64,000 nt of DNA from positions 18,696-82,695 of the forward strand of contig JAUXTO010000013.1 in NCBI GenBank assembly GCA_030679255.1. Direction: 5' to 3'. Under the pieces are notes generated by a model, which had not been told where the DNA came from, did not search any database, and worked only from the letters and a program-made list of their open reading frames with translations. This DNA comes from Candidatus Gottesmanbacteria bacterium. Lineage in GTDB: Bacteria > Patescibacteriota > Microgenomatia > UBA10105 > UBA927. Of this stretch, positions 1-17,019 are shown one piece after another. Numbering within the stretch: the stretch's first letter is position 1; each line of letters opens with the position of its first letter. A program made the translations under genes and the position numbers.

Positions 1-59
1 GCAGTGCGCTGGTGTTATAACTGGGGATGATAATAGATAAATCCATGTTACGTTTTCTC

Positions 60-86
60 GTCATTCCCGCGAAGGCGGGAATCCAG
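60..86. repeat. 27-bp element GTCATTCCCGCGAAGGCGGGAATCCAG containing a perfect 20-bp palindrome (ATTCCCGC-GAAG-GCGGGAAT); intergenic copy. It is followed by two more short hairpins (ATCCAG..CTGGAT and GCCGGA..TCCGGC) up to about position 120.
   Basis: Read directly from the sequence. An identical 27-mer recurs at 52213-52239. Confidence 0.8.
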
Positions 87-133
87 AATTAATGAACTGG
101 ATGCCGGATCAAGTCCGGCATGACAAAGAGGTA

Positions 134-766
134 TTACTGAAATAACCTTGCGAATGTTAATGTGTAGCGCAAATCTTTCGACCGGTACCGGATATGTTTG
201 GCTGGGACTCCCCCAACGACACTGTATGGTTCCACATCATGGGTCACGACCGCGCCACTTGCCACCACTGCGCCGCGACCGATATGGACTCCGGGGAGAA
301 TCGTCACCCTGGTACCAACTACCGAATAGTCATCGATCATCACAGCTCCCTCTTCCTCTTTAAAATCCGGATCATCGATGTCATGCTGCATGGTGAAAAT
401 TCTTACTTCACCGGCTATGGAAACATTATTCCCGATGCGAAGCGGTCGCCTTGCCGGTCGGAAAAAATCACGGATATAACTTCCTCCTTTTCGCTTATGC
501 CGTCCGTCAAGGAATGCATCATTACCGATCACCGTATTATGACCAATTTCAACACCAGATGGATTGTTAAATCTCGCAAGCCAATGAATCGAGCTATCCT
601 TGCCTATTTTTATGCGAAACAAATATCGGTAAAGGAGTAGCCTTATGGTATGACTCGGGATAAGCCCGGTCAGAGTACAAAGGAAAACCCAGAAATCTAT
701 AACAATACGCATATTAGTAAGCACCAAGCACCAATTTCCAAATCCCAAACAAATTCCAATTTTCAA
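134..766 (-). CDS. Hexapeptide-repeat (left-handed beta-helix) sugar acetyltransferase, WcaF-like
   Basis: C-terminal LbH repeats ([60 protein letters not shown]). Hydrophobic N-terminus with an RLLLYRYLFRIKIG motif, similar to the paralog at 6019-6561. The true start may be the internal Met near 712. Confidence 0.75.
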   Translation of the reverse strand: MKIGICLGFGNWCLVLTNMRIVIDFWVFLCTLTGLIPSHTIRLLLYRYLFRIKIGKDSSIHWLARFNNPSGVEIGHNTVIGNDAFLDGRHKRKGGSYIRDFFRPARRPLRIGNNVSIAGEVRIFTMQHDIDDPDFKEEEGAVMIDDYSVVGTRVTILPGVHIGRGAVVASGAVVTHDVEPYSVVGGVPAKHIRYRSKDLRYTLTFARLFQ

Positions 767-820
767 ATTCCAAACGTTTAGGTATTAGTGCTTAGAATTT
801 TGATATTGTTTGTGATTTGG

Positions 821-2035: not shown

Positions 2036-2577
2036 AGGTATCCCGGATAAACAACCTGTAATCTATTCTCTGGAATATTTAACAATTTACCAACGTCATT
2101 CTTTGTCGATTGTGAATCACAAAGGATAGTCTTGCATTCGCGTTTTATCCATGCAAGGCGTCGACCTTGTACCTCGAGGATACGTTTGGCAAACGTTTCG
2201 GGGTAACGCAAAAAACTCACATCATGGATGGTTGTGACTCCTAGAGCATGAGCCAGCGGAGGCTGTGTCCAGTCGCTGCTCCAAAAAACATCTATCGGGC
2301 CGGTGAACCACTCAACGGGTACGATATGAAGCGTATTCCAGATGAATTCCAGGAATGTAGGAGGAATCGGAACTGCCACTAAACGGATCCGGGAACTGCC
2401 CTCGCGCACCTCTTCAAAATACGCTTTAATGAAGGAAAGTTTCCGCAGTGAAGCACCAAAAAGAACATACTCGTTCTTCTGGTCAATGGCGAGGAGTGCT
2501 TTCACGAGATGACGGACATATTCGCCTACCCCCGTTCCCTCATGCACGATCTGGCTGATATCGATACCTATTTTCAT
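2032..2577 (-). CDS. GT4 N-terminal-domain-only protein (truncated glycosyltransferase fragment; possible pseudogene or standalone domain)
   Basis: 181 aa. Begins MKIGIDISQIVHEGTGVGEYVRHL like a GT4 N-domain and ends ..ENRLQVVYPGYL, exactly where the C-domain would begin. Its stop overlaps the start of the downstream full-length GT4 (ATGA). Confidence 0.55.
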   Translation of the reverse strand: MKIGIDISQIVHEGTGVGEYVRHLVKALLAIDQKNEYVLFGASLRKLSFIKAYFEEVREGSSRIRLVAVPIPPTFLEFIWNTLHIVPVEWFTGPIDVFWSSDWTQPPLAHALGVTTIHDVSFLRYPETFAKRILEVQGRRLAWIKRECKTILCDSQSTKNDVGKLLNIPENRLQVVYPGYL

Positions 2578-2617
2578 ATGTCTTACGTCCTACATCCTAC
2601 GTCTTATGTCCTACTTC
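2576..2617. repeat. Tandem heptamer tract, 6 units of TAYRTCY (minus-strand reading TAGGACR-like). It fills the entire gap between the galE stop and the start of the GT4 fragment.
   Basis: tatgtct|tacgtcc|tacatcc|tacgtct|tatgtcc|tacttct read directly. Same family as the tracts at 47259-47295 and 47706-47747. Confidence 0.8.
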
Positions 2618-3597
2618 TTCCCGTCTTCCAATCTCTTCTGATGCCATTTCCACGCCGTTTCTATGATGGTCGCCAATTCCGGGTATTCTGGTTCCCATCC
2701 GAGCACCGTTCGGGCTTTCTGATTATCCGCCCAGAGTTTGGCGGGGTCTCCGGGACGGCGCGGGGCAAACGAACGCATGACGCGCTGTCCAGTCACGCGC
2801 TCGACCGTATCCAATACTTCCAGATTGCTATATCCCTTCCCAACGCCGAGATTGATGGCTGTGGACTCTCCGCCGCGGGAGAGATACTCAACGGCTTTCA
2901 GATGCGCATGAGCCAGATCTACGACGTGTATGTAATCCCGTATGCATGTGCCATCCGGCGTTTCATAATCATTGCCATAGAGTTCAAATTTTTCCCGTTT
3001 CCCGGAAGCCACGTCAAGGGCGATAGGAATGATGTGAGATTCACGGCCGTGTGCCTCGCCCAAGCTTCCATCCGGAAGAGCCCCGGCAGCGTTAAAATAA
3101 CGAAGGATGACAAAGTTCGTGCTGTAAATCCGTCCATACCACTCAATCATCTCTTCGACCATCCGCTTGCTAGACCCATACACCGAAACCGGCGCAATCG
3201 CCGCATCCTCCATGACCGGTACGTGATCCGGATACCCATAAACAGCACTCGTCGAGGAAAAAATGACAGAAGGATTACCATGTAGCCTGACCGCCTCAAG
3301 CAAATTCAATCCCCCACGGAGATTATTATCAAAATATTCATACGGCTTCTCCATGGACTCTCCAGCGAGAGAGTAGGCAGCAAAATGAACGACCGCATCG
3401 AAAGACTCCGAGGCAAGAGCCTGATCAATATCTTCTTTATTACGGATATCCCCTACGATAAGCTTCGTGTCCCTGACTGCCTGCCTATGCCCGAGAGAAA
3501 GATTGTCAAAGACAACCGTTTCAAATCCCTGCTGCCTCAAAACTGCATTGGTGACGGAACCGATATAGCCTGCCCCCCCAGTGATGAGTATTTTCAT
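2611..3597 (-). CDS. galE: UDP-glucose 4-epimerase
   Basis: MKILITGGAGYIGS, ..YSLAGES.., ..YGSSKRMVE.. (YxxxK), and length 328 aa. Classic GalE SDR. Confidence 0.9.
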   Translation of the reverse strand: MKILITGGAGYIGSVTNAVLRQQGFETVVFDNLSLGHRQAVRDTKLIVGDIRNKEDIDQALASESFDAVVHFAAYSLAGESMEKPYEYFDNNLRGGLNLLEAVRLHGNPSVIFSSTSAVYGYPDHVPVMEDAAIAPVSVYGSSKRMVEEMIEWYGRIYSTNFVILRYFNAAGALPDGSLGEAHGRESHIIPIALDVASGKREKFELYGNDYETPDGTCIRDYIHVVDLAHAHLKAVEYLSRGGESTAINLGVGKGYSNLEVLDTVERVTGQRVMRSFAPRRPGDPAKLWADNQKARTVLGWEPEYPELATIIETAWKWHQKRLEDGKK

Positions 3598-3603
3598 GTA
3601 CCT

Positions 3604-3826
3604 TTATTCTACCCTATGCGGCCGGATGAGCGAAATGAGAATAAATGTGAGGAAATAGGCCGCTGCGTACCACGTCATCCTCTCTGCGGTAAAAAACGTC
3701 CAAGTCGCGAAAAGTGGTATTGCCAGGACCAGACACCCGAGTCCTACCCACACAAAAAATACTGGGCGGCGGACCAAGAGAAGCACGGCAAATACTATAA
3801 AAAATCCGACATCTTGTGGTTTCATA
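3604..3826 (-). CDS. Small 2-TM membrane protein (about 74 aa), function unknown
   Basis: Starts at the internal Met (MKPQDVGFF..), whose ATG overlaps the stop of the upstream UXS-like gene (ATGA). Two hydrophobic helices. The longer 94-aa ORF version would overlap the upstream gene by 67 nt. Confidence 0.45.
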
Positions 3827-4781
3827 ATGACCGGTAATAGGCAATGGTCTTTGAGAGTCCATCGGTGACGGATACGTTCGGTTCCCACGCGAGAACGGTC
3901 TTTGCCTTAGCAATATCCGGCTGGCGTTCATGCGGATCGTCTGTAGGCAATTCCTTGAATATAATTTCGGATGCAGATTTGATCATTTCTTTTATTTTCA
4001 AAGCCAAATCAACCATCCGATATTCTTCCGGATTACCCAAATTTATCACCTCGCCGTTCGTTTTTTCTCCAAACATTGCCTGCATGATGCCATCAACTAA
4101 ATCTGATACATAGCAAAATGACCGTGTCTGGGTCCCATCACCATAGACGGTCATGTGCTCGCCTTTGATCGCCTGGTTCACGAGATTGGATATCACCCGA
4201 CCATCGTCGGACCGCATCCTTGGCCCATAGGTGTTAAAAATACGGATAATGCGCGCATCGAGTTTGTATTTCCGTTGATAAACCATCGTCATCATTTCCC
4301 CGAACCGCTTTGACTCATCATAACATGCTCTGATCCCTACAGGATTCACGTTACCCCAATAGGTTTCCTTCTGTGGATGCTCTTTGGGATCCCCATACAC
4401 TTCCGACGTCGAAGCAAATAGAAATTTCGCACCGGTTTCCTGAGCGACTTCCAAGAGATTTCTCGTGCCAATCGAATTGACGAGCGCAGTTTCTTCAGGA
4501 TATTTTTGGTAATCCACGACCGAGGCAGGTGAAGCGAGATGAAAAATATAAGAAACGTTATTTAATTGTTTTATGGTTTCACGGTTCAATGGTTCTGAAA
4601 CATCATGATCGAGGAAAATAAACTGTGAATTGTCAAATGCATCAGAAAGATTTTCTTTTCTCCCAGTAACTAAATTGTCCACGCAGATGACGCTGTACCC
4701 GGCTCCAAGCAGCTTATCGCAAAGGTGCGAACCGATAAACCCCGCTCCTCCCGTCACCAAGCACGTTTTCTCATCGTTCAT
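3822..4781 (-). CDS. UDP-glucuronate decarboxylase family SDR (UXS / ArnA C-domain-like)
   Basis: LVTGGAGFIGSHL, ..ACYDESKRFGE.., DDGRVISN. 319 aa. Paralog at 32796-33914. Confidence 0.8.
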   Translation of the reverse strand: MNDEKTCLVTGGAGFIGSHLCDKLLGAGYSVICVDNLVTGRKENLSDAFDNSQFIFLDHDVSEPLNRETIKQLNNVSYIFHLASPASVVDYQKYPEETALVNSIGTRNLLEVAQETGAKFLFASTSEVYGDPKEHPQKETYWGNVNPVGIRACYDESKRFGEMMTMVYQRKYKLDARIIRIFNTYGPRMRSDDGRVISNLVNQAIKGEHMTVYGDGTQTRSFCYVSDLVDGIMQAMFGEKTNGEVINLGNPEEYRMVDLALKIKEMIKSASEIIFKELPTDDPHERQPDIAKAKTVLAWEPNVSVTDGLSKTIAYYRSL

Positions 4782-4793
4782 ACTACCATTGTA

Positions 4794-5969
4794 CTACTTC
4801 TTCCATTCACCGGCGAGCCACGACACTGCGGCAATCACGTCATGGATATCTTTCTCCCGCAAATTAGCTCCGAGCGGTAACGACACTGTTCTCTCGCCGA
4901 TAAACTCCGCATGAGGAAACATGTTTTTTTTGAAACCAAAGGTCTTACGGTAGTACTCATGGAGATGGACAGGACTGAAATGAACCCCGCTTCCGATGTT
5001 CATTTTGATCAGTTGATCGACAAAATCATCCCGGGATATCCGTAATTTCTCGAGTCGCAAGAGTATTGCAAATAAATGCCGTGCATGTTTTGTGTTGGGT
5101 GATTCGGCGGCCGGAAGCATGAGTTCCGGTACGCTTGTGAACGCATGCATATACGTTTCCCAATGTTGTTTTCTGATGACCCAATTTTTTTCCACACGGG
5201 CGAGTTGATGGATGCCGATTGATGAGGCAATATCCGTCAAATTGTATTTATATCCTGGAGTAACCGCTTCATAATGCCGGTAGTACCGCACGCTGTACCG
5301 CTTATATGCATCCTGCGATAAACCGTGGAGACTCATAATCCGCATGGACTCGGCAAATTTTTTACTATTTGTCGTTACCATCCCTCCTTCGCCGGTTGCA
5401 ATATTTTTCGTCACATAAAAAGAAAATACGGTGATATCGCCGATCGACCCAATCTTTTTCCGCTTATAGACTGCCTCTGCGGCATGGGCCGCATCCTCAA
5501 CGACAAAAAGCTTATGGCGGCGGGCAATACTCATGATTGCATCCATATCGCAAGGCCGCCCGTGCAGATGGACTGGCAAAATGACTTTTGTCTTGGAAGT
5601 AATCTTTTTTTCAATTTCCTTGGGATCAATATTCCATGTCTCCCGGTCCACATCGGCAAACACTGGGGTGGCGCCACAGTGGAGTATCACGTTGGCTGTA
5701 GACACAAAGGTGAGGGGAGTTGTGATGACTTCGTCGCCCTTCCCCACGCCTAATGCAATGAGGGCGAGATGCAGTCCCGCCGTTGCCGAATTGACACCGA
5801 GCGCGTATTTGGCTTTCGCGTAGTGTGCAAAGGCCGTTTCAAACTCTTCCGTCTTGGGCCCCGTCCCCCACCAACCCGATTTGAGGGTATCCACGACTTC
5901 GGCAATTTCCTCATGGCCGATGTAGGGCTTACCGAAAACCAAAAATGATTTTCTCTGCGGTTTCTTCAT
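4794..5969 (-). CDS. DegT/DnrJ/EryC1 family PLP-dependent sugar aminotransferase
   Basis: ..KSGWWGTGPKTEEFE.., NSATAGLHLAL, the DAAHA box, and FSFYVTKNIATGEGG with the catalytic Lys present. Confidence 0.85.
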   Translation of the reverse strand: MKKPQRKSFLVFGKPYIGHEEIAEVVDTLKSGWWGTGPKTEEFETAFAHYAKAKYALGVNSATAGLHLALIALGVGKGDEVITTPLTFVSTANVILHCGATPVFADVDRETWNIDPKEIEKKITSKTKVILPVHLHGRPCDMDAIMSIARRHKLFVVEDAAHAAEAVYKRKKIGSIGDITVFSFYVTKNIATGEGGMVTTNSKKFAESMRIMSLHGLSQDAYKRYSVRYYRHYEAVTPGYKYNLTDIASSIGIHQLARVEKNWVIRKQHWETYMHAFTSVPELMLPAAESPNTKHARHLFAILLRLEKLRISRDDFVDQLIKMNIGSGVHFSPVHLHEYYRKTFGFKKNMFPHAEFIGERTVSLPLGANLREKDIHDVIAAVSWLAGEWKK

Positions 5970-6018
5970 AGTTATTCAAGACCACCTCTTGCAAATTGCA
6001 AGAGGTGGTCTTATGAAA

Positions 6019-6561
6019 TTACGACTTAAATCTTCGTATCACCCTCGCCGGTACCCCTCCCACAAGAGTTTTTGGCGGTACATCCCGGGTCACGACTGCC
6101 CCGGCTCCCACTGCAGCCCCATCGCCTATCGTGAGTCCGGGGAGTATCACGACCCGCGCCCCAACGAAACATCCCCGTTTTAATCTCACTGGTTTGGCTA
6201 TGGAAGGAATCGACGCTTGCAGTGGATGATCTTTATACCCCACGTTTGTATGAGTAAGGATCATGACATCAAGCGACAGTGTCACATCGTCTTCCAGGGT
6301 TATCCTCTCCGCTAAATCCAAGGTTACCTCGTCTCCCAAAAAACAATTATCGCCCATTGAGATCCCACTGATCCCAGTCCTATACAGATTAACGAGACGG
6401 ATCCGTTCTATGACGGTATTTTGTCCAATCTGTGCGCCAAAGAGCCGCAAAATCCACACGCGCATCGGGGAGACAACCATCATGGCAAACAGATACTGCC
6501 AGAGGCTAAATAATCCATAACGGATAGCTTTTTCAATCCCGATTTCTTTGAATGCCATCAT
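6019..6561 (-). CDS. WcaF-like hexapeptide acetyltransferase
   Basis: Short N-terminus with [14 protein letters not shown] (WcaF-type motif). C-terminal LbH repeats ..[41 protein letters not shown]. Confidence 0.75.
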
Positions 6562-6565
6562 AAAT

Positions 6566-7297
6566 TTACGGTAACAAATATCCTTGTTTAACCAATTGTT
6601 TATGAAATCCCAAGAGGTTCTTTATGTATTCATATGTATCATGGACGAGCCGGACCGACGATTTTTTATCAAAACGGCGGATAAAGAGGACTGGCGCCTC
6701 ACGTATGACGAGTCCTGCGTAGTAGGCATACGTCATAATTTCAGTGTCCCAAAACCAACCATTATGCTTCGTCTTATTGAGAATAGGTAGTATCTTTTTC
6801 CGGTTAAAAAATTTATAGCCGGTCTCCGTATCCTGGAGAGGTATTCCCAACACCGATCGCACGAGCCAGGAATACCCACGGGATAGTATTGACCGATGAA
6901 TAGATGATAACCCTTCACGATACACCCGAAGCCCGGTGACGACATCAGCTTCCCCATCCAGAATCATACGGACAAATGACGGGATATATACCGACGAAAC
7001 TTCAAGATCAATATCGATAAACCCAACAACACCCCCGCGCGCAATGGCAATTCCATCCCGCACCGTTTTTCCCCTCCCTTGATTGACCGGGTGATAGAGT
7101 GCCCGGAAATTTTTGTTCTTTTTGACGAGTGACGCAATGATCTCCCTCGTCCCATCAGTACTTTTATCATCCACAAATATAAGTTCATAGGAAAACACAC
7201 TATCATCCAGCTCCGACGTTATACGGGTAACACTCTCCCGCAGAAGATTTTCTTCGTTATAGCAGGCGATGATGAGAGATAGATCAATATACTTCAT
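6566..7297 (-). CDS. GT2 polyprenol-phosphate glycosyltransferase (DPM1/GtrB/ArnC-like)
   Basis: [26 protein letters not shown].. GT-A motifs; 243 aa. Its first ~15 codons recur as decayed remnants at 8745-8775, 11845-11895, 13321-13374 and 13665-13715. Confidence 0.8.
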
Positions 7298-7300
7298 TCG

Positions 7301-7999
7301 TTAAAGAAAATGCATCGTCTTTTTGATTAAACTCTCAAGTTCTCCTATTAGCTTTGCCTTGGCCCAATCTTTTTGTGACTCGGTCAGAACCTCTCCTAGT
7401 CCAACGAGTATTTTCTTTGAGTCCCGGTTCGATACAAATTCCAAAAGTGATTTATAGAAATCTTTCGGCTGCTTACCAGTTCGATGTCTGATGATGTCAT
7501 AATTGATGTCTGTCGCATATGATGAACTTAAAAAATAGTGAATATCAAACAAATCCCTGTTTGCGATACTTTTTCTTTCCATGGAAGCTACCAGCTTGTG
7601 AGCAATCATATCCCGTATATGCATGGTCTTGACGGTTACACCATAAAACGGTAGTAAGCCGTAATGGTTATATGGATTATCCCTGGTCGATATTTCTACC
7701 TTTATGTGCGCCAAACCCAGGCCATAACTTACTACCCAAAACAGAGTATTAAATTTTGTACTATAGTCCTTGATATCGTATTTAGCAGATAATAATTGCG
7801 TCATCTGATCTCCTACCCCATCACTCTGAGACAGGAGATCAAAATCCAAATCTACGGAAAACCGAGGTAACTTATAAAAAAGCATCGCCGCTGTACCGCC
7901 TTTAAAGCCCAAAATAGGGCTCAGTGTGCTATTTTTGTAAATATCGAGCAAAATATTGGTCAGGTGTGTCTTGTGTTTGGTAATATCAAGCGCTTTCAT
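7301..7999 (-). CDS. AbiEii/AbiGii-family nucleotidyltransferase toxin (type IV toxin-antitoxin)
   Basis: GFKGGTAAMLFYKLPRFSVDLDFD motif. ATGA overlap with the upstream AbiEi gene. Confidence 0.8.
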   Translation of the reverse strand: MKALDITKHKTHLTNILLDIYKNSTLSPILGFKGGTAAMLFYKLPRFSVDLDFDLLSQSDGVGDQMTQLLSAKYDIKDYSTKFNTLFWVVSYGLGLAHIKVEISTRDNPYNHYGLLPFYGVTVKTMHIRDMIAHKLVASMERKSIANRDLFDIHYFLSSSYATDINYDIIRHRTGKQPKDFYKSLLEFVSNRDSKKILVGLGEVLTESQKDWAKAKLIGELESLIKKTMHFL

Positions 8000-8571
8000 A
8001 CGATGGTATATTTATTGATAAATCCTGCAATAACCGTATTGTTTCCGTACACATCGGTATTCAAATTCCTCATCAGCTCCCAATGAATATCACGCAAATT
8101 GTCAAAAAATGCATCTCCATCCAAATATAATGTATCGCACAGAGCCCGTTCCGGTGTAGCCTTATGGACACCGTCTACAAATATTGTTCCGATATGGTTG
8201 AGCAAAATATCATCTTTGATTTTTCGATAGATATATTTTTGACCATCAACTTCATATATTTCCGATCTCTGGGATACGGCGTATATGTCCGAATAGGGCT
8301 GAAATATGATTCCTACTTCCTGCAATACGGTGTAGAGGCTTATATAGGAAGGAGTTCTAAACTTATTGGCAAACTCTATCCTGGAATAATCGTTGGAAAA
8401 TGCATAAATACCCCGCGTAATTCTTTTTACATCCTTCTTTTTGGTCGCATATTTCAGAGCAGAATACAATTTGGCGCCACTATATCCTGCAACTTGTTGC
8501 GACAAATCAGAAACCAAATAAACAGTTTGACGGGAATTTTTACCTATGGATAACGCTTTTATATACCCCAT
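7996..8571 (-). CDS. AbiEi-family antitoxin / transcriptional autoregulator
   Basis: About 190 aa, immediately upstream of and translationally coupled to the AbiEii toxin. Family assignment rests on architecture plus sequence character. Confidence 0.65.
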   Translation of the reverse strand: MGYIKALSIGKNSRQTVYLVSDLSQQVAGYSGAKLYSALKYATKKKDVKRITRGIYAFSNDYSRIEFANKFRTPSYISLYTVLQEVGIIFQPYSDIYAVSQRSEIYEVDGQKYIYRKIKDDILLNHIGTIFVDGVHKATPERALCDTLYLDGDAFFDNLRDIHWELMRNLNTDVYGNNTVIAGFINKYTIV

Positions 8572-8619
8572 ATCACCCCGAAGTGTAAATTATTTCCATT
8601 TCCATGTCAAGAGAATCGA

Positions 8620-8740
8620 TTTAAAATAAAGACTCAGTGGGCTTTATATGATCAAGTGTTAGCTTACTATACAAAAATGTACAGTATCCTTACATTGATC
8701 ACAAGGAGATCTTTAAACACAGTAGCTTTTCCTCGTTTAA
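8620..8740. promoter_or_regulatory. Conserved ~100-bp element, copy 1, upstream of AbiEi #1. It contains the inverted repeat TGATCAAGTGT..N33..ACATTGATCA and is a candidate AbiEi operator/promoter.
   Basis: Near-identical copies occur at 10180-10290 and 13560-13660. Confidence 0.5.
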
Positions 8741-8781
8741 CAGGCGATCACGAGGGAAAGAACTGGTTAATTCATATTCTG

Positions 8782-9567
8782 CTATTTCGCCAATTCTCCA
8801 AAAAAATCCAACCTATCTGCCTGCTTTTCATCAAAGAGAAACGGCCGGAGTTTAATTTTATACCGCGAAAGCGATGAATATTCCAAGTCAAATTTCTTCC
8901 GTGCTCTATCCATTATATCAACCGGTATATGATTTGTTTTGGCAAAAGTTAGGTCTGGTTTGATCCCACGGGATAGAAGCCAAACGAGATCATATAAATC
9001 GCGAGGTTGGGTTTCCCCTCTTCCTACATACGCTGCTAACTTTTCTACCATCATCTGCTCAAGCGATTTGGTGACAACTGTGGCCAAAAAGCCATAACGA
9101 TTCACGAAAACCGTTTCCCGTATTTGTCCCCGCCAAGAGTATTCAATGTCCAGTTTAATCATCAATTTTTCATCTTTATTAGGACTCAGCTGAAGCTGAG
9201 TGAGTAATCCCGGAAAACGCAATTCGAAATAGCTTCTCTTTATCGTCTTATTTCGATGGAGTTCTACAGTAATATCCTCCTGCTGTAGCCTCTGGAGTAC
9301 GATATTCACGAGTAGGTGTACTTGAGGGGAAGGTATTCCGACCGCATCAAAATCCAAATCCTCGGAAAAGCGGTCAAGTCCGCGTAATATTCGGAGTGCT
9401 GTTCCACCGACAAAAAAAAGGTTTTGAGAAATTTTCTCCTGATAGAGAAACGAGAGAATTTTCGTCTGCAAATACTCCCGCAGAATTGCGCGTCGTTTCT
9501 CCGGGGGCAATCCATACGTCCGGGCAAAACTCAGGATTTCAGTAAAATTGACAATGGCATTATTCAT
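8782..9567 (-). CDS. AbiEii-family nucleotidyltransferase toxin, copy 2
   Basis: FFVGGTALRILRGLDRFSEDLDFD motif. Start taken at the internal Met (MNNAIV..), which gives an ATGA overlap with AbiEi #2. Confidence 0.75.
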   Translation of the reverse strand: MNNAIVNFTEILSFARTYGLPPEKRRAILREYLQTKILSFLYQEKISQNLFFVGGTALRILRGLDRFSEDLDFDAVGIPSPQVHLLVNIVLQRLQQEDITVELHRNKTIKRSYFELRFPGLLTQLQLSPNKDEKLMIKLDIEYSWRGQIRETVFVNRYGFLATVVTKSLEQMMVEKLAAYVGRGETQPRDLYDLVWLLSRGIKPDLTFAKTNHIPVDIMDRARKKFDLEYSSLSRYKIKLRPFLFDEKQADRLDFFGELAK

Positions 9568-10118
9568 GACAGTTTTATTTCCTGTATCCACTTCGGAAAA
9601 TGAACGGCATATTCACGGTATCGTTTCCAGTCCCAATCGTTAAGCTGTAAGCGCATTTCCGGTGAAATGCTCCGTATCCGTCGTAAATAAAAGTAATCCA
9701 AAAGCGCCTTTTCTTTGTACGCTATGGCAAACGGCGTTTGAGAGAAACCAAAAAAAAGTGCACGATCAACTTTGAAATAATGATATACCCCAAACCCCGT
9801 TTCAATTTTTTTCGTAGTAACCGGCGTGACACAACTGACCGCCATGGGAATATCCGGGATAATCCCGTAGTAATTGAGTGCTGTTTCCAAACTGACGTAG
9901 GATGGGAAATAGAGTTGTTCGGCCAACGCAAGTTCGTCAATGGTACTTTTGTCAAAACAATATAATCCCCGCTTAAGCTGAGAAATAAACCCCTTTTTTA
10001 CGAAACGGTAGAGCTGGGTCCTGATCGTCGAAGATTGCTCCGCTGGGAAAAGCTTCGCCACATCTAAAATCCGGAAATAATTTCCCTCAATTTGTTTCCT
10101 TAGATCTAAATACCTCAT
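9564..10118 (-). CDS. AbiEi-family antitoxin, copy 2
   Basis: 184 aa, upstream of and coupled to AbiEii #2. Same architecture as copies 1 and 3. Confidence 0.6.
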   Translation of the reverse strand: MRYLDLRKQIEGNYFRILDVAKLFPAEQSSTIRTQLYRFVKKGFISQLKRGLYCFDKSTIDELALAEQLYFPSYVSLETALNYYGIIPDIPMAVSCVTPVTTKKIETGFGVYHYFKVDRALFFGFSQTPFAIAYKEKALLDYFYLRRIRSISPEMRLQLNDWDWKRYREYAVHFPKWIQEIKLS

Positions 10119-10179
10119 TAACAGATAATATACAAAAATGTCTATTATTTGTCAACAACTAAATAGCACCATTTAGTAA

Positions 10180-10290
10180 CAAAATAATTGAGACTCGGTC
10201 ATCCTTATCTGATCAAATGTTACATTACTATACAAAAATGTACAGTATCCTTACATTGATCACAAGGAGATCTTTAAACACAGCACCATG
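10180..10290. promoter_or_regulatory. Conserved ~100-bp element, copy 2, upstream of AbiEi #2
   Basis: ..atgttacattactatacaaaaatgtacagtatccttacattgatcacaaggagatctttaaacaca is almost identical to 8660-8740. Confidence 0.5.
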
Positions 10291-10378
10291 GAATATGCCC
10301 ATCTTCTTCTAGGACATTTACATCAAATCTTTTTGGCATAAAATCGGACGGCCTCCTTACTTTTTTTGAGACGAATCC

Positions 10379-11098
10379 TCAACTGTTTCGCTCGATCTCC
10401 CTTTCTAAAGCATTACGGAAGTCCCGGATCATCAAAATCTGGCTCTTTGGAAGAAACAGTGACAGCTCTCTGTCAAAACTCAATGTAGTCTTAGATAGTA
10501 ATTGCTTCACTTTATATAACTGTTTTTTTTGGTCAGGTGTAAGTAAATTCGCCCGTAATAAAAAATATATGTCATAAAAATCACGAGCCTTCTGACGGTC
10601 AAATAATGCATGAAACTTACCTTCAATTAAATTGAAGGTAGATAAACTTTTTACGGGATAGAGAGAAACAAAATCATTTTCAACAGTAAATATCTCACCA
10701 GGTACAACATCTTTTCGAAACGATATTTCTAAGTGAATAGTAATAGGCTGACCAATATTTTTAAATAGTACAATACAAAGATAACCACCGCTAGTGGTTT
10801 TACTCTCTTTGATGTCTACCTCAATTCCTTCACGTGAGACATCGATGAGCGTCTCCTGCAAAATGTTTTCCCATATGCCACTGGTATGCACAGTAGTGTC
10901 AAAATCTAAATCCTCAGAAAAACGGGGGCTTCTATAGAGTAGTCGAAGTGCAGTTCCTCCTTTAAAATATAAATCTTTTGCTTCCGGTTTTTGGAAAAGA
11001 TAACTTAAGAGCACATGTTGTCCATATTCCCGATTTATATTTATATCCGGAGTTTGATATTTGATAGCAAGTTTTTGTAAATATGATGAACTAAGCAT
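10379..11098 (-). CDS. AbiEii-family nucleotidyltransferase toxin, copy 3 (more divergent)
   Basis: YFKGGTALRLLYRSPRFSEDLDFD motif. Confidence 0.75.
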   Translation of the reverse strand: MLSSSYLQKLAIKYQTPDININREYGQHVLLSYLFQKPEAKDLYFKGGTALRLLYRSPRFSEDLDFDTTVHTSGIWENILQETLIDVSREGIEVDIKESKTTSGGYLCIVLFKNIGQPITIHLEISFRKDVVPGEIFTVENDFVSLYPVKSLSTFNLIEGKFHALFDRQKARDFYDIYFLLRANLLTPDQKKQLYKVKQLLSKTTLSFDRELSLFLPKSQILMIRDFRNALEREIERNS

Positions 11099-11100
11099 AG

Positions 11101-11697
11101 TTATTTATCAAACACCTTGGCTACTAAAGCATTTAGAGATTTACTGGCGAAAAGCTTTGTATATATTTTTACCTTGTTTACATCAACAGTTGATAGGTCA
11201 AGGCGCTCTGACAGTGCTCTTCTCCCGAGTGAAACCGCATAGAGATAATCGACAATAGCTTTTTCCGGATCTGCAATAAAAAATCTTTTATGATCTGCTA
11301 CTTTCATTTCATATCCTGTATATGCACGAAGTTTAATAGTGGTATAGCGAAAACTTTTTGAATCAACCATATATTCCCGGGTAGGCTTCGTGGTAGCTGA
11401 AGTTATGGTGTAGACCATATCAGGTAAAATATTGTAATAAGCAAGTGCAAATTCAAATGATAGATATGAAGGGCGGTAAAGTTGATTAGCGATTTCCAAC
11501 TCAGAAGGTGGGTCAGTTTTCAGATAATACATCCCCCGTTTAGCCTGGATAAATAATCCATTCTCAGTACCTTTTTGGAGATAATACAGTGTTTGTCTGT
11601 TCGATAAAGAAAGCAATACGCCAAACTCCCGCGCTGAAAATATTGGGAGATGCTTGGCTAACAATGTATCTCTTATGCCTAAAAATGATGTTTTCAT
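11101..11697 (-). CDS. AbiEi-family antitoxin, copy 3
   Basis: 198 aa, immediately upstream of AbiEii #3, with a 2-nt gap. Confidence 0.6.
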   Translation of the reverse strand: MKTSFLGIRDTLLAKHLPIFSAREFGVLLSLSNRQTLYYLQKGTENGLFIQAKRGMYYLKTDPPSELEIANQLYRPSYLSFEFALAYYNILPDMVYTITSATTKPTREYMVDSKSFRYTTIKLRAYTGYEMKVADHKRFFIADPEKAIVDYLYAVSLGRRALSERLDLSTVDVNKVKIYTKLFASKSLNALVAKVFDK

Positions 11698-11931
11698 TTC
11701 ATTTATTACTTAAATATAGGTAATTACTGAAATGAGTATATCCCACTAGATAGATTTTGTCAACTATATCCATGCCTTGACAAAAAAACCAGACAGGCAC
11801 GCTTTTTTCGTTTCATAGTCCTATGAAGTCGTTTGCCCGTAGAAACTTTTCTTCATTGTGGGCAGGCGATGATGTGAGGGAGATCCGATTTCTTGAATAA
11901 ATTCGATGTCATCTAAAACTTGACTCACCGT

Positions 11932-13242
11932 TTATTCTCTTGAGAGAGTAGTCGAAAGCCACTTCCATAATGGTGTGTAAATGATTTCTATACCATTCAT
12001 AATACTAACCCCTTCCACGTCCCATGTAATCAATTGCCCGGATGATTGACCAAGCGATTTGGCAGCCTTTATAAGTGCCCTCGTCTCCCGTTCCGGTACT
12101 TCAGGCATGCTTGAAGCGAACGTTACCTGTATAAGTTCCTTTACGGTTTTATTATGCAATAGAACAAAATCAACTTCGTGATCTGAATAATCTTTCCAGT
12201 ACGCCACGTCATATCGGGGATCCCACGTGCTTCGTATATGTAATGCATGGAATACAGCCTGCTCCATCATGTATCCAAAATTTGTTGATACCGTGCTACT
12301 GAAATGAGAGGAAAAATAATTATCTACCAGATACGACTTCTTCACTGTTTGTATTCTTTTTTTTACATTTGCAGAAAATACCTCAAGACGGGCAATAAAA
12401 AATGACCACTCCAGCCAGTGCATGTATCGAATAACGGTCGCTTTACTTATTGCGTGTCCCGTCCCCTTGAGAGAGTTTGCTAATTTGGAATATGTATAGC
12501 TTCTCGTATTCGGCAACAAGCGTAATAAATCAGTAAACGCCTCTTTATTGCGCAGCTTATACCGGTCTACTATATCCCGATCTACAAAAGAAGAAAAGTA
12601 ATCCGCCAAAATGAGCGGCCGCAACCCTTCCTCTGCAAGCACTATCTCCGGCAGACCGCCAAACAATAGATATTCACGTAAAAGATTAAGAACGTGAGCA
12701 TGGGACACGCTCTGTATATCTACATCACGGAAACGCAAAAATTCATTCCAGTTCAAAGGAAACATGGGAATTGTAATGGTTTGTCCTCGAAGTTCTGTGG
12801 GAATCTCGCGCGAGGAAAGTTTTGAAGACGAACCGGAAAGAACAAGCCGGTGCTGTGTCGTCTCGTTTATTCGCCGTGCCCACATACTCCACTGGGGTAT
12901 CTCCTGTATCTCATCCATTAAAAGTACAAATGACTGGTTACCTTTTAGTTCCGTAAGTAAATCGGGAAGCATACTCAAAATCTCTGTTTTTTTCGGTACG
13001 CGCTCATCCTCAAAGTTTATATAGACACAACGTTCTTTCCCGTATTTTTGCGCAAAATCAAGAAGGCTGAATGTCTTCCCCACTCGTCTAAAACCGACGA
13101 CGGATACAATTTTTCGGACGTTAGGATCAAAATATGAGACTAAATTCACATCACGGGATTTTATTACGGGTAAGGGATTATTCCACCAATTCCTCACGAG
13201 GTCATTCAAAAGTTGTTTCATAATCGAATGTCTATGATACAA
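11932..13242 (-). CDS. AAA+ ATPase of the DUF4143/AAA_14 type
   Basis: P-loop VGFRRVGKTFSL, Walker B LLMDEIQ. 436 aa. The common stand-alone ATP-binding-protein family. Confidence 0.75.
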   Translation of the reverse strand: MYHRHSIMKQLLNDLVRNWWNNPLPVIKSRDVNLVSYFDPNVRKIVSVVGFRRVGKTFSLLDFAQKYGKERCVYINFEDERVPKKTEILSMLPDLLTELKGNQSFVLLMDEIQEIPQWSMWARRINETTQHRLVLSGSSSKLSSREIPTELRGQTITIPMFPLNWNEFLRFRDVDIQSVSHAHVLNLLREYLLFGGLPEIVLAEEGLRPLILADYFSSFVDRDIVDRYKLRNKEAFTDLLRLLPNTRSYTYSKLANSLKGTGHAISKATVIRYMHWLEWSFFIARLEVFSANVKKRIQTVKKSYLVDNYFSSHFSSTVSTNFGYMMEQAVFHALHIRSTWDPRYDVAYWKDYSDHEVDFVLLHNKTVKELIQVTFASSMPEVPERETRALIKAAKSLGQSSGQLITWDVEGVSIMNGIEIIYTPLWKWLSTTLSRE

Positions 13243-13273
13243 TATTCATTAATCCTGTATTATAGTATCAATT

Positions 13274-13363
13274 CTACACACGATTGTCAATAATCCCAAC
13301 GTTCTCCCCCAGAAGCTTTTCTTCGTTATAGCAGGCGATGAGAGAGAGGTCAACGTGCTTCAT
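13274..13363 (-). pseudogene. Remnant of the GT2 (6566-7297) N-terminus
   Basis: Minus-strand translation MKHVDLSLIACYNEEKLLGENVGIIDNRV*, versus the intact gene [19 protein letters not shown]. Nucleotides 13321-13374 align to 7251-7304. Confidence 0.7.
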
Positions 13364-13376
13364 TCGTTAAATCTTT

Positions 13377-13511
13377 CTATTTGGTCGCATATTTCAGAGC
13401 AGAATACAATTTGGCGCCACTATATCCTGCAACTTGTTGTGATAAATCCGAAACCAAATAAACAGTTTGACGGGAATTTTTACCTATGGATAACGATTTT
13501 ATATACCCCAT
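13377..13511 (-). pseudogene. Truncated AbiEi N-terminal remnant (44 codons then stop)
   Basis: Translates MGYIKSLSIGKNSRQTVYLVSDLSQQVAGYSGAKLYSALKYATK*, nearly identical to the first 44 aa of AbiEi #1. 13380-13560 aligns to 8441-8620. Confidence 0.75.
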
Positions 13512-13559
13512 ATCACCCTGAGGTGTAAATTATTTCCATTTCCACGTCAAGAGAATCTA

Positions 13560-13660
13560 TTTAAAATTGAGACTTAGTCGTCCTTATATGATCAAGTGTT
13601 AGCTTACTATACATAAATGTACATTATCGTGACACTGATCACACGAAAATCTTTCCATGT
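13560..13660. promoter_or_regulatory. Conserved ~100-bp element, copy 3 (orphan, upstream of the AbiEi remnant)
   Basis: Aligns to 8620-8740 with a few substitutions. Confidence 0.5.
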
Positions 13661-13746
13661 AGTAGCTAGTCTTCATTGTAGCAGGCGGTGATGAGAGAGA
13701 TCCGATTTCTTCATTTGACCGATTGTAACATACGACCAAATCCAAA

Positions 13747-14781
13747 TTGTTCGTTAATAATTCCATACTTCAGATATTTACAATAATCATCTATCTTTAT
13801 TTGACTATGATATCATACCGTGGCTCATCAGCTAACAATGATTTCCGTTCTTTATTATTTTCTTGTTTGCATTACAATTCTTGTATGAGAGAATATTTCC
13901 GAAAGATAGGCATACATAAACCTAATTTCCTTCTTTGCATGGATTTTGAGACAGCAATATCTTCACGAAAAATACACCAAGAAAACTTCAGTATCAATAA
14001 ATTGCGGGATTTGGATAACGGTGACACACTCAAAGCGCTTGAAACCATTTTAAATATTTTAAAAAAATACAATCAAACCATTACGTTTTTTATTGTTTTC
14101 AAGCTGGAAAAAATTTATCCTGGTATTATAAATAAAATTCTTTCTCACGGACATGAGGTCGGGTGGCACGGATACTCGCACTCTTTTCTAAACGATAAAT
14201 TTATACTTAAAAAAGAACTTGACGAATCATATTCTCTTATAAAAAAATATAATATACAGGGTTTTCAAGCTCCTAATATTACTTTTTTTAAGGCTGGATA
14301 TCCTCTTTTAAAGAGATACGGACTGCGCTATTCTTCATCAATTTACGGTAATTCATCAGCTCTATATAATTTTGATGGAATTCTGGAAATTCCTGTGTCC
14401 GTTTCAAACAGCTCTCATGATCCCGACCCGAAAGAAATATCATTTCCTGTCAATCTTTCACCAGTTAATTTACTTAAATTGGGAATCCCTTTTGGATCAA
14501 GTTATTTCTGGAGTCTATTAGGGCATAAATATTATTCAAAAAAACTTGACATTGCGAAAAAAGAGAATAGAACCGTAAATCTTTTTATACATAACTGGCA
14601 GTTATATTCATCTAATAGATTGAATAAAATACGGACTGACGAAAGGATCGGCCTTTTTGCCAATCCCCTCTTTTATCCGTATAAGATAAATGTCATGAAT
14701 ATGTTTGAAAATCTTCTCTCAAAGTATAAATTTACCAGATGTATCGACTACATCAAAATGATAAAAAGCTATGAAAAATAA
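13747..14781 (+). CDS. Polysaccharide deacetylase / CE4 (NodB-fold)-like protein; possible sugar deformylase or deacetylase
   Basis: LLCMDFETA (TFDDG-position motif), HEVGWHGYSH (HxxxH), FQAPNITF (RxPY-like). AT-rich. The true start is probably an internal Met (13807 or 13885); the first ~20 codons look non-coding. Confidence 0.55.
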   Translation: MFVNNSILQIFTIIIYLYLTMISYRGSSANNDFRSLLFSCLHYNSCMREYFRKIGIHKPNFLLCMDFETAISSRKIHQENFSINKLRDLDNGDTLKALETILNILKKYNQTITFFIVFKLEKIYPGIINKILSHGHEVGWHGYSHSFLNDKFILKKELDESYSLIKKYNIQGFQAPNITFFKAGYPLLKRYGLRYSSSIYGNSSALYNFDGILEIPVSVSNSSHDPDPKEISFPVNLSPVNLLKLGIPFGSSYFWSLLGHKYYSKKLDIAKKENRTVNLFIHNWQLYSSNRLNKIRTDERIGLFANPLFYPYKINVMNMFENLLSKYKFTRCIDYIKMIKSYEK

Positions 14782-15586
14782 GCGTCTTTACTTTGTTCTG
14801 GCTGACGAAAATCTATTTCATCCCCATTACTTATCCAGCGTAATAAACAATCTTCCTACTGACTGGAAAGTGACAGGAATAACCGTGCTAAAAGAACATT
14901 ATAAAAAAGGGTTTATTTTCTATCTATTTCGGCAATATTCACTGTGGGGTTTACTGGGTTTTGTTTCACTCACACTCGCGACAATGTTGAAAACATTATT
15001 GAATATATTAAAACTGACAAACGAGTCATCCATTGAGAGAGTTGCTGTCAGAAATAATATACCTTTGATAAAAATCGACAATGTAAATAATAGTAGACAT
15101 CTTAGTTACCTAAAGACTAAACACATTGATATTTTAATTTCCTCATGCGGACAGATATTTAAAGCTGAAATATTGAAAGTTCCGAAAATAGCCTGTATAA
15201 ACCGCCATACAGGATTATTGCCCAAATACGGAGGTTCTCTTCCTGTTTTTTGGGCAATGTATAACAATGAAAAAAAATTCGGTGTTAGTGTTCATATTAT
15301 GGTTGAGAAAATTGATGAGGGGGACGTGATTTCACAGGAAGTTATAGAAAATAAAGACGGAAATACCTTATTCACTAATTATGTTTTCGGATTCAAGTGG
15401 AGTGTCACAGCAACTCTAACTGCTTTACATAACATTACTACAGGAAAATTTGAAAAACGTTTCAATCCGAAAGAGAAACTGTATTTTCGCTTTCCTGAAG
15501 TTGAAACCATACGGGATTTCAGAAAAAAACACATAACTTTCTCTGTATCGGATGCTACATATCTCTTCACTAGTATCCTTCGTTGA
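14771..15586 (+). CDS. Formyltransferase-family protein (sugar N-formyltransferase-like, N-domain only)
   Basis: NRHTGLLPKYGGSLPVFWAM and HIMVEKIDEGDVISQ match the Fmt/ArnA-N/PurN fold signature (N-x-H-x-S-LLP..G ; H-x-M-x-x-x-D-x-G-x-I). Confidence 0.65.
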   Translation: MKNKRLYFVLADENLFHPHYLSSVINNLPTDWKVTGITVLKEHYKKGFIFYLFRQYSLWGLLGFVSLTLATMLKTLLNILKLTNESSIERVAVRNNIPLIKIDNVNNSRHLSYLKTKHIDILISSCGQIFKAEILKVPKIACINRHTGLLPKYGGSLPVFWAMYNNEKKFGVSVHIMVEKIDEGDVISQEVIENKDGNTLFTNYVFGFKWSVTATLTALHNITTGKFEKRFNPKEKLYFRFPEVETIRDFRKKHITFSVSDATYLFTSILR

Positions 15587-15621
15587 AAATGGACAAAGAG
15601 AAACTTTCTGCCTCTTGAACC

Positions 15622-17019
15622 ATGCCTCCTGCTTCAATCGCTAAACCGCTCGTATCTAAAAACATTCCATTGTTGTTGCGCAGATCTCTCGCCCAGTCCA
15701 GATCGTCTTTTACGATAGGCCGAAGCGATATCTTCGTAACTCATAACAATAGTAACGCCTGGTTATACTCTAACGATCATGATTCTGGTACAATCGCCCC
15801 TAGGGCAGTCATCAATGCTATGAAAAATATCTGGAAATTCCATGTGTTTACCGCAGAACTTCCATACGAAAAAGACCAAATTGTTACTCTGTTTCTACGT
15901 GAACGATTTGAGAGAGTTGATTCATTCATTATGAGTTTAGGACAAATGTCCACCTTGCCGCCAAGCAAGCTATCTACATACCTCAGAGGGAAACTTGTGA
16001 ACGAAAAAACATATACTAAAAACGATCTTAACACTGAAGGCCTCAAACTCTATTTTATCTATATTCCGAAAGCACTCCTATCAGTGATACTTGACATGCT
16101 TCGAGCACTCAAAACCATCAACTTTACCTGTGACATTTTCTTTGCCCAACATTTCTTGGCTGCGTTTGTTGCAATAATCCTTAAAAAAACTGGTTTTCTC
16201 CACTGCCAAAAAATTATTTTTTGGATGTTTGATTTCTTTCCTGTTCCCCCAGAGTTTCCTCGAGGCCTCTATTATCGGGGAATGGATGCAATACACGGAT
16301 TTATTCGAAAACATCTAGATGAAATTTGGTATGCTACCCCAAGACTCTTGGAATGTGATAAAGAACGATTTGGCCCGCTTCCAAAATCTGTACAAGTTCG
16401 TCTCACGCATGGGTGTTTTTTCAGGAGAATCCCAACGCCAAAACCGCCCACCCCGCCCCCGCTTCGTCTGGCATTCCTTGGCTCAATCCGTCGCAACAAC
16501 GCAATATATGAAACCATTGATACCGTCCGCAATTGTATTGACCACGGCATGGATGTAGAGCTTCACATCATCGGATCTGGACCGGAAGAAATCCGCGTAA
16601 AAGAATACGTAAAACGCTATGCGTTATCCCATGCTATAACATTTTATGGCTTTGAGGATCGGGGTGAAAAAATTTCTAAAATTTTATCGAAATGTCATCT
16701 TGGTTTAGCGTTATACTCGGCCGATCCATATGGGCCGAACTGGTACCTAACATCAGGAAAATTTAGGCGCTACATAAGCCAATATCTGCCAGTTATTACC
16801 ACATCCGTTCCATATTTTGCAAAGTATATCCATGATTATCACGCGGGGCTAATTGTCGATAACGATTCTGATGAGATAAGACGGACACTCCTGCCAATCT
16901 ACAACAATCCTTCACTCCTTAACAATATGCGCTCCGGCGTGGATAAGCTGTATGATATGTACAAAGCTGATACAATATTAGAGAAAGCCTTCCGTGACAT
17001 GCTCTCTGCTAAAAGATGA
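15622..17019 (+). CDS. Glycosyltransferase (GT4-like GT-B). Paralog of 35678-36811 and 38782-39957.
   Basis: C-terminal block LGLALYSADPYGPNWYLTSGKFRRYISQYLPVITTSVPYFAKYIHDYHAGLIVD is shared with the other two. The N-terminal ~65 codons are low-complexity; the real start is probably Met at about 15820. Confidence 0.6.
   Translation: MPPASIAKPLVSKNIPLLLRRSLAQSRSSFTIGRSDIFVTHNNSNAWLYSNDHDSGTIAPRAVINAMKNIWKFHVFTAELPYEKDQIVTLFLRERFERVDSFIMSLGQMSTLPPSKLSTYLRGKLVNEKTYTKNDLNTEGLKLYFIYIPKALLSVILDMLRALKTINFTCDIFFAQHFLAAFVAIILKKTGFLHCQKIIFWMFDFFPVPPEFPRGLYYRGMDAIHGFIRKHLDEIWYATPRLLECDKERFGPLPKSVQVRLTHGCFFRRIPTPKPPTPPPLRLAFLGSIRRNNAIYETIDTVRNCIDHGMDVELHIIGSGPEEIRVKEYVKRYALSHAITFYGFEDRGEKISKILSKCHLGLALYSADPYGPNWYLTSGKFRRYISQYLPVITTSVPYFAKYIHDYHAGLIVDNDSDEIRRTLLPIYNNPSLLNNMRSGVDKLYDMYKADTILEKAFRDMLSAKR

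Follow-up and report, generated by a model that had tools for sequence, protein, structure and literature searches.

How does an island of small defence cassettes come to be built, one upon another, at the start of a gene for glycan synthesis? The question is raised by a 64,000-nt stretch of contig JAUXTO010000013.1 from a Candidatus Gottesmanbacteria bacterium (the whole of this stretch is called the window here), in which at least six cassettes are stacked against the 5′ end of a GT2 glycosyltransferase gene (hereafter GT2; 6566..7297, PF00535, E 3e-26). We argue, with a probability of roughly 75%, for serial accretion of co-oriented cassettes at the first 60–75 bp of this gene in one Gottesmanbacteria-like clade, with the 5′ end of the gene replaced each time. 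What we observed is the anatomy of the array, empty sites in relatives, outer scars that are native in sequence, an association of start alleles with cassettes, clustered junctions, restriction to one clade, and no recombinase in cis. Most defence islands and toxin–antitoxin islets are without visible mobility genes, and their assembly is usually inferred from flanking synteny only. At this locus the history is legible in the sequence, as displaced starts, empty sites, intermediate states and cassettes that recur with conserved junctions. To our knowledge, few mobile elements have been described for Patescibacteria, a phylum of tiny genomes. Coordinates of GT2, of the scars and P elements described below and of the cassettes refer to the minus strand of the window, and signed positions are relative to the GT2 start.

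Displaced copies of the GT2 start

When the GT2 start region (−12..+80) was used as an nhmmer query against the window, exactly four further copies emerged, all intergenic and all in GT2 orientation (13371-13298, E 3.8e-13; 13717-13656, E 2.6e-5; 11895-11834, E 4.7e-5; 8775-8718, E 1.2e-3). The matches ranked next had E 0.037 (59216-59279, plus strand), E 0.11 (the start of a paralogous GT2 gene, 51048-51758) and E 0.2, and a profile built from 12 copies recovered the same four at E 3e-13 to 9e-17. The first-pass annotation, made from the letters of the window alone, had counted five copies of the start including the gene itself, a count that stands; the length of ~45 nt that it gave them does not, as they run from about −8 to +57/+77. 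Random low-complexity similarity, named there as the possible undoing of the claim, is ruled out by the poor score of the paralogous start and by the behavior of other genes: with 111 gene-end queries covering both ends of 56 genes, no intergenic copy was found of any gene end besides the GT2 5′ end.

The functional copy (GT2 −8..+66; 7232..7305; profile E 6.6e-20) has its ATG at 7297-7295, and immediately before it stands TTTAACGA, which is the end of the adjacent cassette, AbiE-1, and holds the TAA stop codon of AbiEii-1. The four dead copies (hereafter scars 2–5, numbered outwards from the gene) differ in allele and in state of decay. Scar 2 (8711..8780; ATGAATTAA..., ATG at 8775; profile E 2.9e-13) carries an allele reading MKQPV, follows AbiEii-2, ends at +57 where the element P1 begins, and has its orthologue at 3053-3123 of L003, one of the related loci that are cited here by L numbers. 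Scar 3 (11831..11900; profile E 1.3e-14) is without an ATG; its allele is native type-A-like (AAGAAATCGGATC), its homology stops at about +61 to +66, and its alignment to the L087 allele spans +4..+61. Best preserved is scar 4 (13298..13371; ATG at 13363), with the TTTAACGA junction, a 3-nt deletion, a 28-codon open reading frame (ORF) and homology as far as +69/+72; it is 88% identical to the window GT2 start and, over 44 nt, 91% identical to the native start of L094. Scar 5 (13718-13652; ATG at 13714), which with ~22 nt of native promoter-proximal sequence (GTTACAATCGGTCAA) occupies 13652..13740, is the 5′ end that GT2 had originally, and it bounds the array on the outer side.

The scars share a common architecture. 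All of their right ends lie within GT2 +56..+77, whichever of the six distinct junction types is considered; internal scars start at the ATG directly after the end of the preceding cassette, and their first codons go with that cassette; full-length GT2 ORFs, too, begin at cassette ends. Packing is tight: for most scars a promoter-like −35 box of the next cassette lies 5–25 nt past the scar, and 0–15 nt separate the last stop codon from the GT2 ATG. A separate observation concerns AAGCTT (HindIII-type) at GT2 +49..+54, which is present at 13314-13309 in the window, at ~1636-1641 in L003, and at ~9889-9894 and 10049-10054 in L087; in the window, L002, L003 and L004 the resident GT2 allele has lost it, and the L087 gene keeps it. 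This pattern may be chance, or may be a hint of a restriction-break origin.

Defence cassettes and the P element

From the outer end to GT2, the order in the window is deacetylase, scar 5, P3 with an AbiEi stub, scar 4, ATPase, scar 3, AbiE-3, P2, AbiE-2, scar 2, P1 with AbiE-1, and GT2. Cassette 1 (AbiE-1; 7301..8722), proximal to GT2, comprises P1 (8722-8625), AbiEi-1 (8571-7996) and AbiEii-1 (7999-7301), with PF08843 at E 2e-20 and PADLOC matches to AbiEi at 1e-37 and AbiEii at 8e-55. In AbiE-2 (8782..10118; Pfam and PADLOC), AbiEi-2 (10118-9564) and AbiEii-2 (9567-8782) are joined by an ATGA overlap, and a putative promoter of their own lies at ~10160-10125. AbiE-3 (10379..11697; PF08843 E 3e-27; PADLOC AbiEi 1e-35) holds AbiEi-3 (11697-11101) and AbiEii-3 (11098-10379) behind a promoter-like TTGACA...GATATACT at ~11765-11735. 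The partners in each pair overlap or abut; across the three pairs PF08843 is found in three proteins at E 2e-20 to 3e-27, and the PADLOC models match all of them, down to 8e-55. By these matches the cargo qualifies as AbiE type IV toxin–antitoxin (abortive-infection) modules, i.e., an AbiEii nucleotidyltransferase with an AbiEi regulator, as putative functions. The start of AbiEii-2 is most likely the ATG at 9567 that overlaps the AbiEi-2 stop and not the GTG at 9591, the mechanical ORF start being probably too long.

The remaining intact cassette encodes an ATPase (11932..13221; AAA_14 + DUF4143 in Pfam), which PADLOC matches as the candidate defence gene PDC-S01 (E 7e-82), and its promoter-like TTGACA starts 9 nt after scar 4. 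Its start is most likely ATG 13221 rather than TTG 13242, the 429-aa product being on record (P0001). Beyond scar 4 lies the degraded oldest cassette (13377..13662), reduced to P3 (13662-13565) and a 44-codon AbiEi-1 stub (13511-13377) that an internal deletion joins to TTAACGA. It forms part of a duplication of the AbiEi 5′ end (8427-8726 = 13367-13666; 90% identity over 300 nt), which the first-pass annotation had described, stub included.

That annotation had also reported three ~100-bp AbiEi-promoter elements, and these are borne out as the P element, 98 nt long and present at 8625-8722, 10186-10283 and 13565-13662, the latter two 89% and 81% identical to the first. P2 (10186..10283) is an orphan. 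It is what is left of a third AbiE-1-type cassette, otherwise deleted, as it shares derived variants with a remnant in L003 (1537-1589) that is still trailed by GTTAACGA and a scar. Here the claim that every module is bounded by scars, which holds for most of the array, goes slightly too far: around P2 (10119-10378) there is no recognisable scar on either side, and past a few bases beside P neither alignment nor profile search detected a decayed one in 10284-10378, whereas the orthologous position in L003 still has its scar (1587-1650).

P is not tied to one cargo. Its first ~70 nt are common to AbiE-1, to a reversed AbiEii–AbiEi pair (L003, L004) and to the vestige before AbiE-2, and its first ~35 nt also stand upstream of an ATPase-like gene at the start of L003. 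P holds a sigma-70-like promoter (TTGTGA, 17 nt, TACATT) and an imperfect palindrome of ~55 nt that has TGTACATTTTTGTATAG at its centre; folded as DNA, it does better than shuffled sequence in two copies (z −3.3 and −2.6), and the third copy gives z −0.8. A 23-nt motif related to this palindrome lies just upstream of AbiEi-2 (10126-10148); judged by sequence, both are probably AbiEi-type operators.

The ATPase has a wider distribution than the site. Homologues at 70–88% identity are very common in Patescibacteria, and in L164, L165 and L167 (78–83%) they stand in unrelated contexts, with DNA homology running from the −35 box to inside the ORF and no GT2-like ends or scars seen flanking them in these three loci. 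The scars are therefore tied to the GT2 site rather than to the cargo, and the cargo itself is promiscuous. The L164 homologue (83% identical; 1-12754) sits in an apparent mobile or defence island, with ArdC-N/MPTase, an SLFN-like helicase, a PIN toxin and a 1242-aa SNF2 helicase as neighbours. Other homologues (P0014, P0019, P0025, P0026 and P0027; 76–81% identical) are 650–667 aa long; three of the long homologues were read, and each has a conserved C-terminal extension of ~240 aa (…PVLDVEPN.GGTGG…) with no assigned function. An ATPase–GT2 fusion was considered for these proteins and rejected, as the extension is an unrelated domain. The window itself holds a second AAA_14 + DUF4143 ATPase (49799-50956, minus strand; PADLOC PDC-S01 E 2e-83) between the paralogous GT2 gene (51048-51758) and a flippase gene (48532-49791), with its own promoter-like TTGACA...TAAAAT. 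No scars lie alongside it, and this, with the empty result of the gene-end queries, led us to reject scars as a general property of the locus.

Empty sites, arrays and junctions in related genomes

GT2 heads a conserved block (GT2, hexapeptide transferase, DegT, two epimerases, GT4), and orthologues 74–84% identical with the same downstream synteny were found at L002-L006, L084 and L087, the closest of them from Patescibacteria bins. While the genes downstream are conserved among these relatives, the upstream neighbour is variable: a deacetylase in the window, a methyltransferase in L004, L094 and L084, a GT4 gene in L087 and a homologue of that gene in L005, with other ORFs, outside the domain scan, in L002 and L006.

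The first-pass annotation had proposed a comparison with related genomes for an empty site, and three were found. In L084 the native promoter runs directly into the gene (...GGTACAATCGGTCAA|ATGAAGAAACCGGATC); in L094 the methyltransferase gene is followed by a GTG start; and in L005 the homologue of the L087 GT4 gene (itself outside the domain scan) is followed by ATGTATCATG....

Other relatives represent occupied states of the same site. L004 (= L083) has the L094-type upstream gene, then one scar, a P element, an AbiEii–AbiEi pair and GT2, and L087 has the L005-type upstream gene, then one scar and a 95-nt insert with an L084-type promoter and start. (Scar and insert lie at 9851-10000; the insert holds an inverted repeat, TTGACAGGGGTTGTCAA, and amounts to a swap of gene start and promoter without any defence gene.) L003 bears at least five cassettes and three scars. 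In L002 the ATPase (88% protein identity) abuts GT2 and just GT2 +64..+72 is left at the left end of the cassette, and in L085 the end of AbiEii-1 reads ...TTTCTTTAACGA|ATG, as in the window, and the cassette abuts GT2.

The outermost scars link the occupied to the empty sites. Scar 5 of the window with its 22 nt upstream is 87% identical to L084 over 68 nt, the L004 scar with 40 nt upstream is 80% identical to L094 over 104 nt, and the L087 scar with its upstream sequence is 75% identical to L005 over 104 nt. As the outermost scars in all three continue into the native context of empty-site relatives, the outer scar is the displaced original start of the gene.

Junctions recur as well. The P-type left junction is found three times in the window, twice in L003 and once in L004; the AbiE-1 right junction, TTAACGA|ATG, has four copies in three genomes (window GT2, scar 4, L003 and L085); and the AbiE-2 right junction followed by ATGAAGCAACCAGTT, i.e., the MKQPV allele, is present in both the window and L003. 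All cassettes at all loci are in GT2 orientation. The DNA of AbiE-2 is 84.1% identical to L003 1659-3092, against 77.6% for the GT2 of that pair, and the two comparisons made within the same genome pairs give 84.1 and 84.4% for cassettes vs 77.6 and 74.9% for the adjacent GT2. That cassettes are closer between genomes than the genes beside them is, as a pattern of identities, consistent with transfer. Upstream scars are confined to loci with GT2 identity ≥79%, with 0 of 148 more distant orthologues having one. The empty sites, native outer scars and recurrent junctions support, and sharpen, what the first-pass annotation had proposed, namely repeated insertion at one hotspot with a copy of the target junction brought each time.

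On the far side of the array, the left flank of the hotspot in the window is the divergent polysaccharide deacetylase gene (13747..14781, plus strand; PF01522, E 3.5e-10). Elsewhere in the glycan locus, Pfam gave nothing at E ≤1e-5 for ORFs of 710, 1266, 822, 536, 387, 377, 548 and 333 aa; the large Pfam-less ORFs lie at 20932-23064, 23701-27501, 27778-30246, 54387-58285 and 61341-63992, on the minus strand.

Search for a mobilising enzyme or attachment structure

The cassette proteins are AbiEi, AbiEii or AAA_14/DUF4143 ATPases only, and no integrase is encoded among them. Neither intI nor attI nor Pc was detected, and Phage_integrase is absent from the scanned window ORFs of at least 150 aa, in agreement with the remark of the first-pass annotation that no integrase is in view. 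An attC-like structure of the scars was tried and rejected. The five site copies were folded as DNA, with both strands used for the best three, and compared to shuffled sequence: four of five gave z −0.35 to +0.65 and scar 2 gave z −2.2; no hairpin is conserved among the five, and inspection of their alignment by eye showed no RYYYAAC...GTTRRRY pair. Exact matching of the core and P left-end patterns to IMG/VR (2.9 million viral contigs) returned none, and we found no paper describing such an arrangement in Patescibacteria.

A model of serial cassette accretion

The order of events, a circular intermediate and the enzyme are what we infer from this anatomy. The cassette unit is a small, self-contained AbiEi/AbiEii module or PDC-S01-type ATPase, in most cases with a promoter-like left end, and its right end would carry a GT2 start segment from the ATG to ~+57..+77. 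Recombination within this GT2 homology, by a Campbell-type single crossover or an equivalent, would place the cassette in GT2 orientation and leave the start fragment on both of its sides: the downstream copy would join the rest of the gene as its working 5′ end, and the displaced upstream copy, truncated and dead, would remain as an attL-like scar. Repeated entry would then stack cassettes, with older copies of a re-invading type (i.e., AbiE-1) left to decay. Because excision between two repeats would regenerate the unit, and cargo could be swapped inside it, junctions would stay at +57..+77, and the other junction would stay at the start codon, which must be kept. For cassette 1, the circle or tandem junction (right end to its own left end via one site copy) would read ...TTTAACGA-ATG..core..CTG-TGTTTAAAGATC. 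As to the enzyme, host homologous recombination acting on short portable homology (e.g., after DNA uptake) and a site-specific recombinase encoded elsewhere seem to us about equally likely; Patescibacteria are reportedly naturally transformable. GT2 and the glycan genes downstream are probably read through from cassette promoters, and a surface-glycan operon can thus come to depend on start codons, and probably on promoters, that cassettes supply.

Several points weigh against this reading. All genomes compared are metagenome bins. No recombinase or transposase domain was found by Pfam in window ORFs of at least 150 aa from 6019 to 63992 (six ORFs at 134-5969 were not directly scanned), and none was recognised within the arrays of related loci, few of whose ORFs were scanned. 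The longest block invariant among GT2-start copies is ~16–20 nt (TCTCATCATCGCCTGC), short for RecA-dependent exchange. At GT2 codons 1–10 synonymous identity is 0.71, the same as at codons 181–190 and no outlier, which gives no independent indication that this stretch is under selection as a DNA site. The model does not account for how each cassette type first gained its GT2 start fragment. The L004 scar holds the resident-type allele right up to the +60 junction, a pattern more in keeping with exchange at the far end, or with gene conversion at a later time, than with a crossover in the core; and the L087 insert, at 95 nt, is too small for a plausible circle.

Alternative explanations

One alternative is that the repeats are an artefact of assembly or binning, from collapsed or chimeric sequence. 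In an independent assembly, the Logan contigs of SRR13727518, contigs 100% identical to the window cover 13466-16465 (the first 3 kb of L170 tested), 13409-10254, 10254-8693 and 8469-1911, and each of the four scars lies inside one contig, between unique sequences. As every scar is within a 100%-identical independent contig, and as the same architecture occurs in bins of unrelated studies (L003, L004/L083 and L087), we hold an artefact to be extremely unlikely. What could be said for it is that these contigs break at exact 57–60-nt repeats (8469-8526 = 13409-13466; ~8664-8722 = 10225-10283), which leaves the order of the blocks without independent confirmation; the assembly graph would permit, as the alternative, a one-cassette array plus a circle of ~4.9 kb, and shows no such circle. 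(A circle of this size, with the ATPase, AbiE-3 and AbiE-2 on it, would be released if the two AbiEi 5′ copies recombined. Exact-protein look-ups for population variants matched just one sample, SRR13727518, and the stub ORF is not on record.) Nor is the array readily derived by duplication in place of a unit made of P, AbiE-1 and the GT2 start, followed by divergence and with no repeated insertion, a process that the first-pass annotation had offered beside insertion. The P and AbiEi 5′ segment is indeed duplicated at 90%, and TTAACGA and a GT2 start come after both copies. However, the intervening cassettes are unrelated (AbiE proteins of ~30–40% identity and one ATPase), the scar alleles differ and match native or cassette-associated starts of other genomes, and different cassette sets occupy the same site elsewhere. 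Tandem duplication is thus largely refuted for the array as a whole, for most of which it is not needed, and is possible only for the two AbiE-1 copies; as an account of the locus it is very unlikely.

The other alternatives concern what drove insertion. A site-specific recombinase whose gene lies on a helper element, or at another place in the genome, might recognise a core in the GT2 start and mobilise integrase-less cassettes in trans, as with ccr-less SCC elements, satellite islands or integron cassettes, which would be a variant of serial accretion with the enzyme named. The strict orientation, the retention of the core even in old non-coding scars, allele switches inside the core in three of four P-type scars, the limitation to one clade, and a left-end module of 20–30 nt (TAAAGATCYCCTTGTGATCA) conserved beside the scar with four different cargoes all speak for it. 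Against this, scans of the window gave no such enzyme and none was recognised in the fetched flanks, GT2 homology ends differently by cassette type (+57 to +77), the core is also the most conserved coding block (LIIACYNEE), such that its retention may be historical, and there is no excess of synonymous conservation; we entertain this variant as a tentative possibility. An improbable alternative is that cassettes and att scars are the remains of a larger integrase-bearing prophage, plasmid or island at the GT2 5′ end. Decay is plainly visible (the AbiEi stub, the orphan P, the almost wholly deleted L002 scar and the P remnant of L003), the architecture is like that of dusA islands, and toxin–antitoxin islets have been argued to come from eroded mobile elements (PMC13617665), yet ~14 cassettes in six genomes yielded no recognised integrase or backbone fragment, packing is tight, different genomes share the same minimal units with their junctions conserved, and the core and P patterns go unmatched among viral contigs. 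Break repair, finally, would invoke a hotspot of breakage at GT2 ~+57..+77, mended from a cassette-bearing relative with the right end set by GT2 homology and the left end illegitimate, and with the start of the recipient left as a scar. It would suit the clustering of scar ends at +56..+77 over six junction types, left junctions that share no sequence between cassette types, an L087 insert (another allele's promoter and start) that is awkward for a circle, and, as a lead only, the AAGCTT at +49..+54 of several scars and its loss from some resident alleles. No nuclease or break site was identified, the P-type junction is a single shared event spread to different native contexts, for which recombination within the scar is needed and not new breaks, and the exact abutment of cassettes on the ATG is left unaccounted for. 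We consider break repair quite improbable; the L087 insert and the L004 allele to +60, which accretion by crossover does not fully explain, keep it alive.

Comparison with known systems

Serial accretion at GT2 has its nearest parallel in elements that replace the start of a gene. The dusA islands and prophages integrate at the 5′ end of a coding gene and replace it, with the original 5′ end becoming the outer boundary (Farrugia et al., 2015; PMC4482086). Likewise, the outer scars of the window, L004 and L087 are the original 5′ end, and GT2 takes a new in-frame 5′ end from the element. However, dusA elements are tens of kb long with their own tyrosine integrase by the att site, whereas the GT2 units are of 1.3–1.6 kb (one of 95 nt), without an integrase, and up to six stand in tandem. 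As in Prochlorococcus tycheposons at tRNA sites (10.1101/2020.12.28.424599), integrations at one site are successive and displace older elements, and partial target copies and degraded elements remain scattered through the island. The signs of an accretion island are present: the window has four scars and L003 has three, the outermost window cassette is a stub, and an orphan P is a further vestige. Yet the target is the start of a protein-coding gene and not a tRNA, and where tycheposons carry integrases and replication modules, GT2 cassettes carry just defence or toxin–antitoxin cargo.

Integron arrays and CALINs offer a different likeness, being small, co-oriented, single-function cassettes, often toxin–antitoxin, that are separated by repeats with no recombinase inside. 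Unlike theirs, the GT2 repeat is a fragment of a host gene, with no attC hairpin (z about 0) and no R/L box pairs seen, the cassettes carry promoter-like sequences of their own, and the outer end of the array is a divergent deacetylase gene. That GT2 nonetheless hosts an integron-like, unrelated cassette system, with its first 60–75 bp as the attachment site at which a trans recombinase or permissive host recombination inserts, excises and shuffles cassettes, is in our view doubtful; if true, defence islands in ultra-small genomes would be built from integrase-less mobile cassettes of a new class. In staphylococci, SCC elements stand in tandem at one end of rlmH (orfX) with direct repeats of the site between them, and some are recombinase-less and mobilised in trans. 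Their target is a 3′ end with repeats of 15–18 bp and Ccr serine recombinases, while the GT2 repeats are of 60–75 bp at a 5′ end.

Lastly, like core-gene hotspots and toxin–antitoxin islets (PMC13617665), the GT2 site holds cargo free of mobility genes at a fixed position beside a conserved gene, with turnover between relatives. Homologous exchange at core-gene hotspots uses two flanking core genes as long homology arms and leaves no serial partial copies of a flank, however, and at GT2 only the right flank is conserved, the left one differing between genomes. Serial accretion at GT2 is therefore an extension of known att-site accretion, with no new principle unless a dedicated recombinase is found. 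Its novelty lies in the cassettes, which are minimal, carry defence genes and no integrase, and sit where a protein-coding gene begins, in a phylum that has been little studied; they offer a model, concrete and open to test, of how cassettes without an integrase accrete in Patescibacteria.

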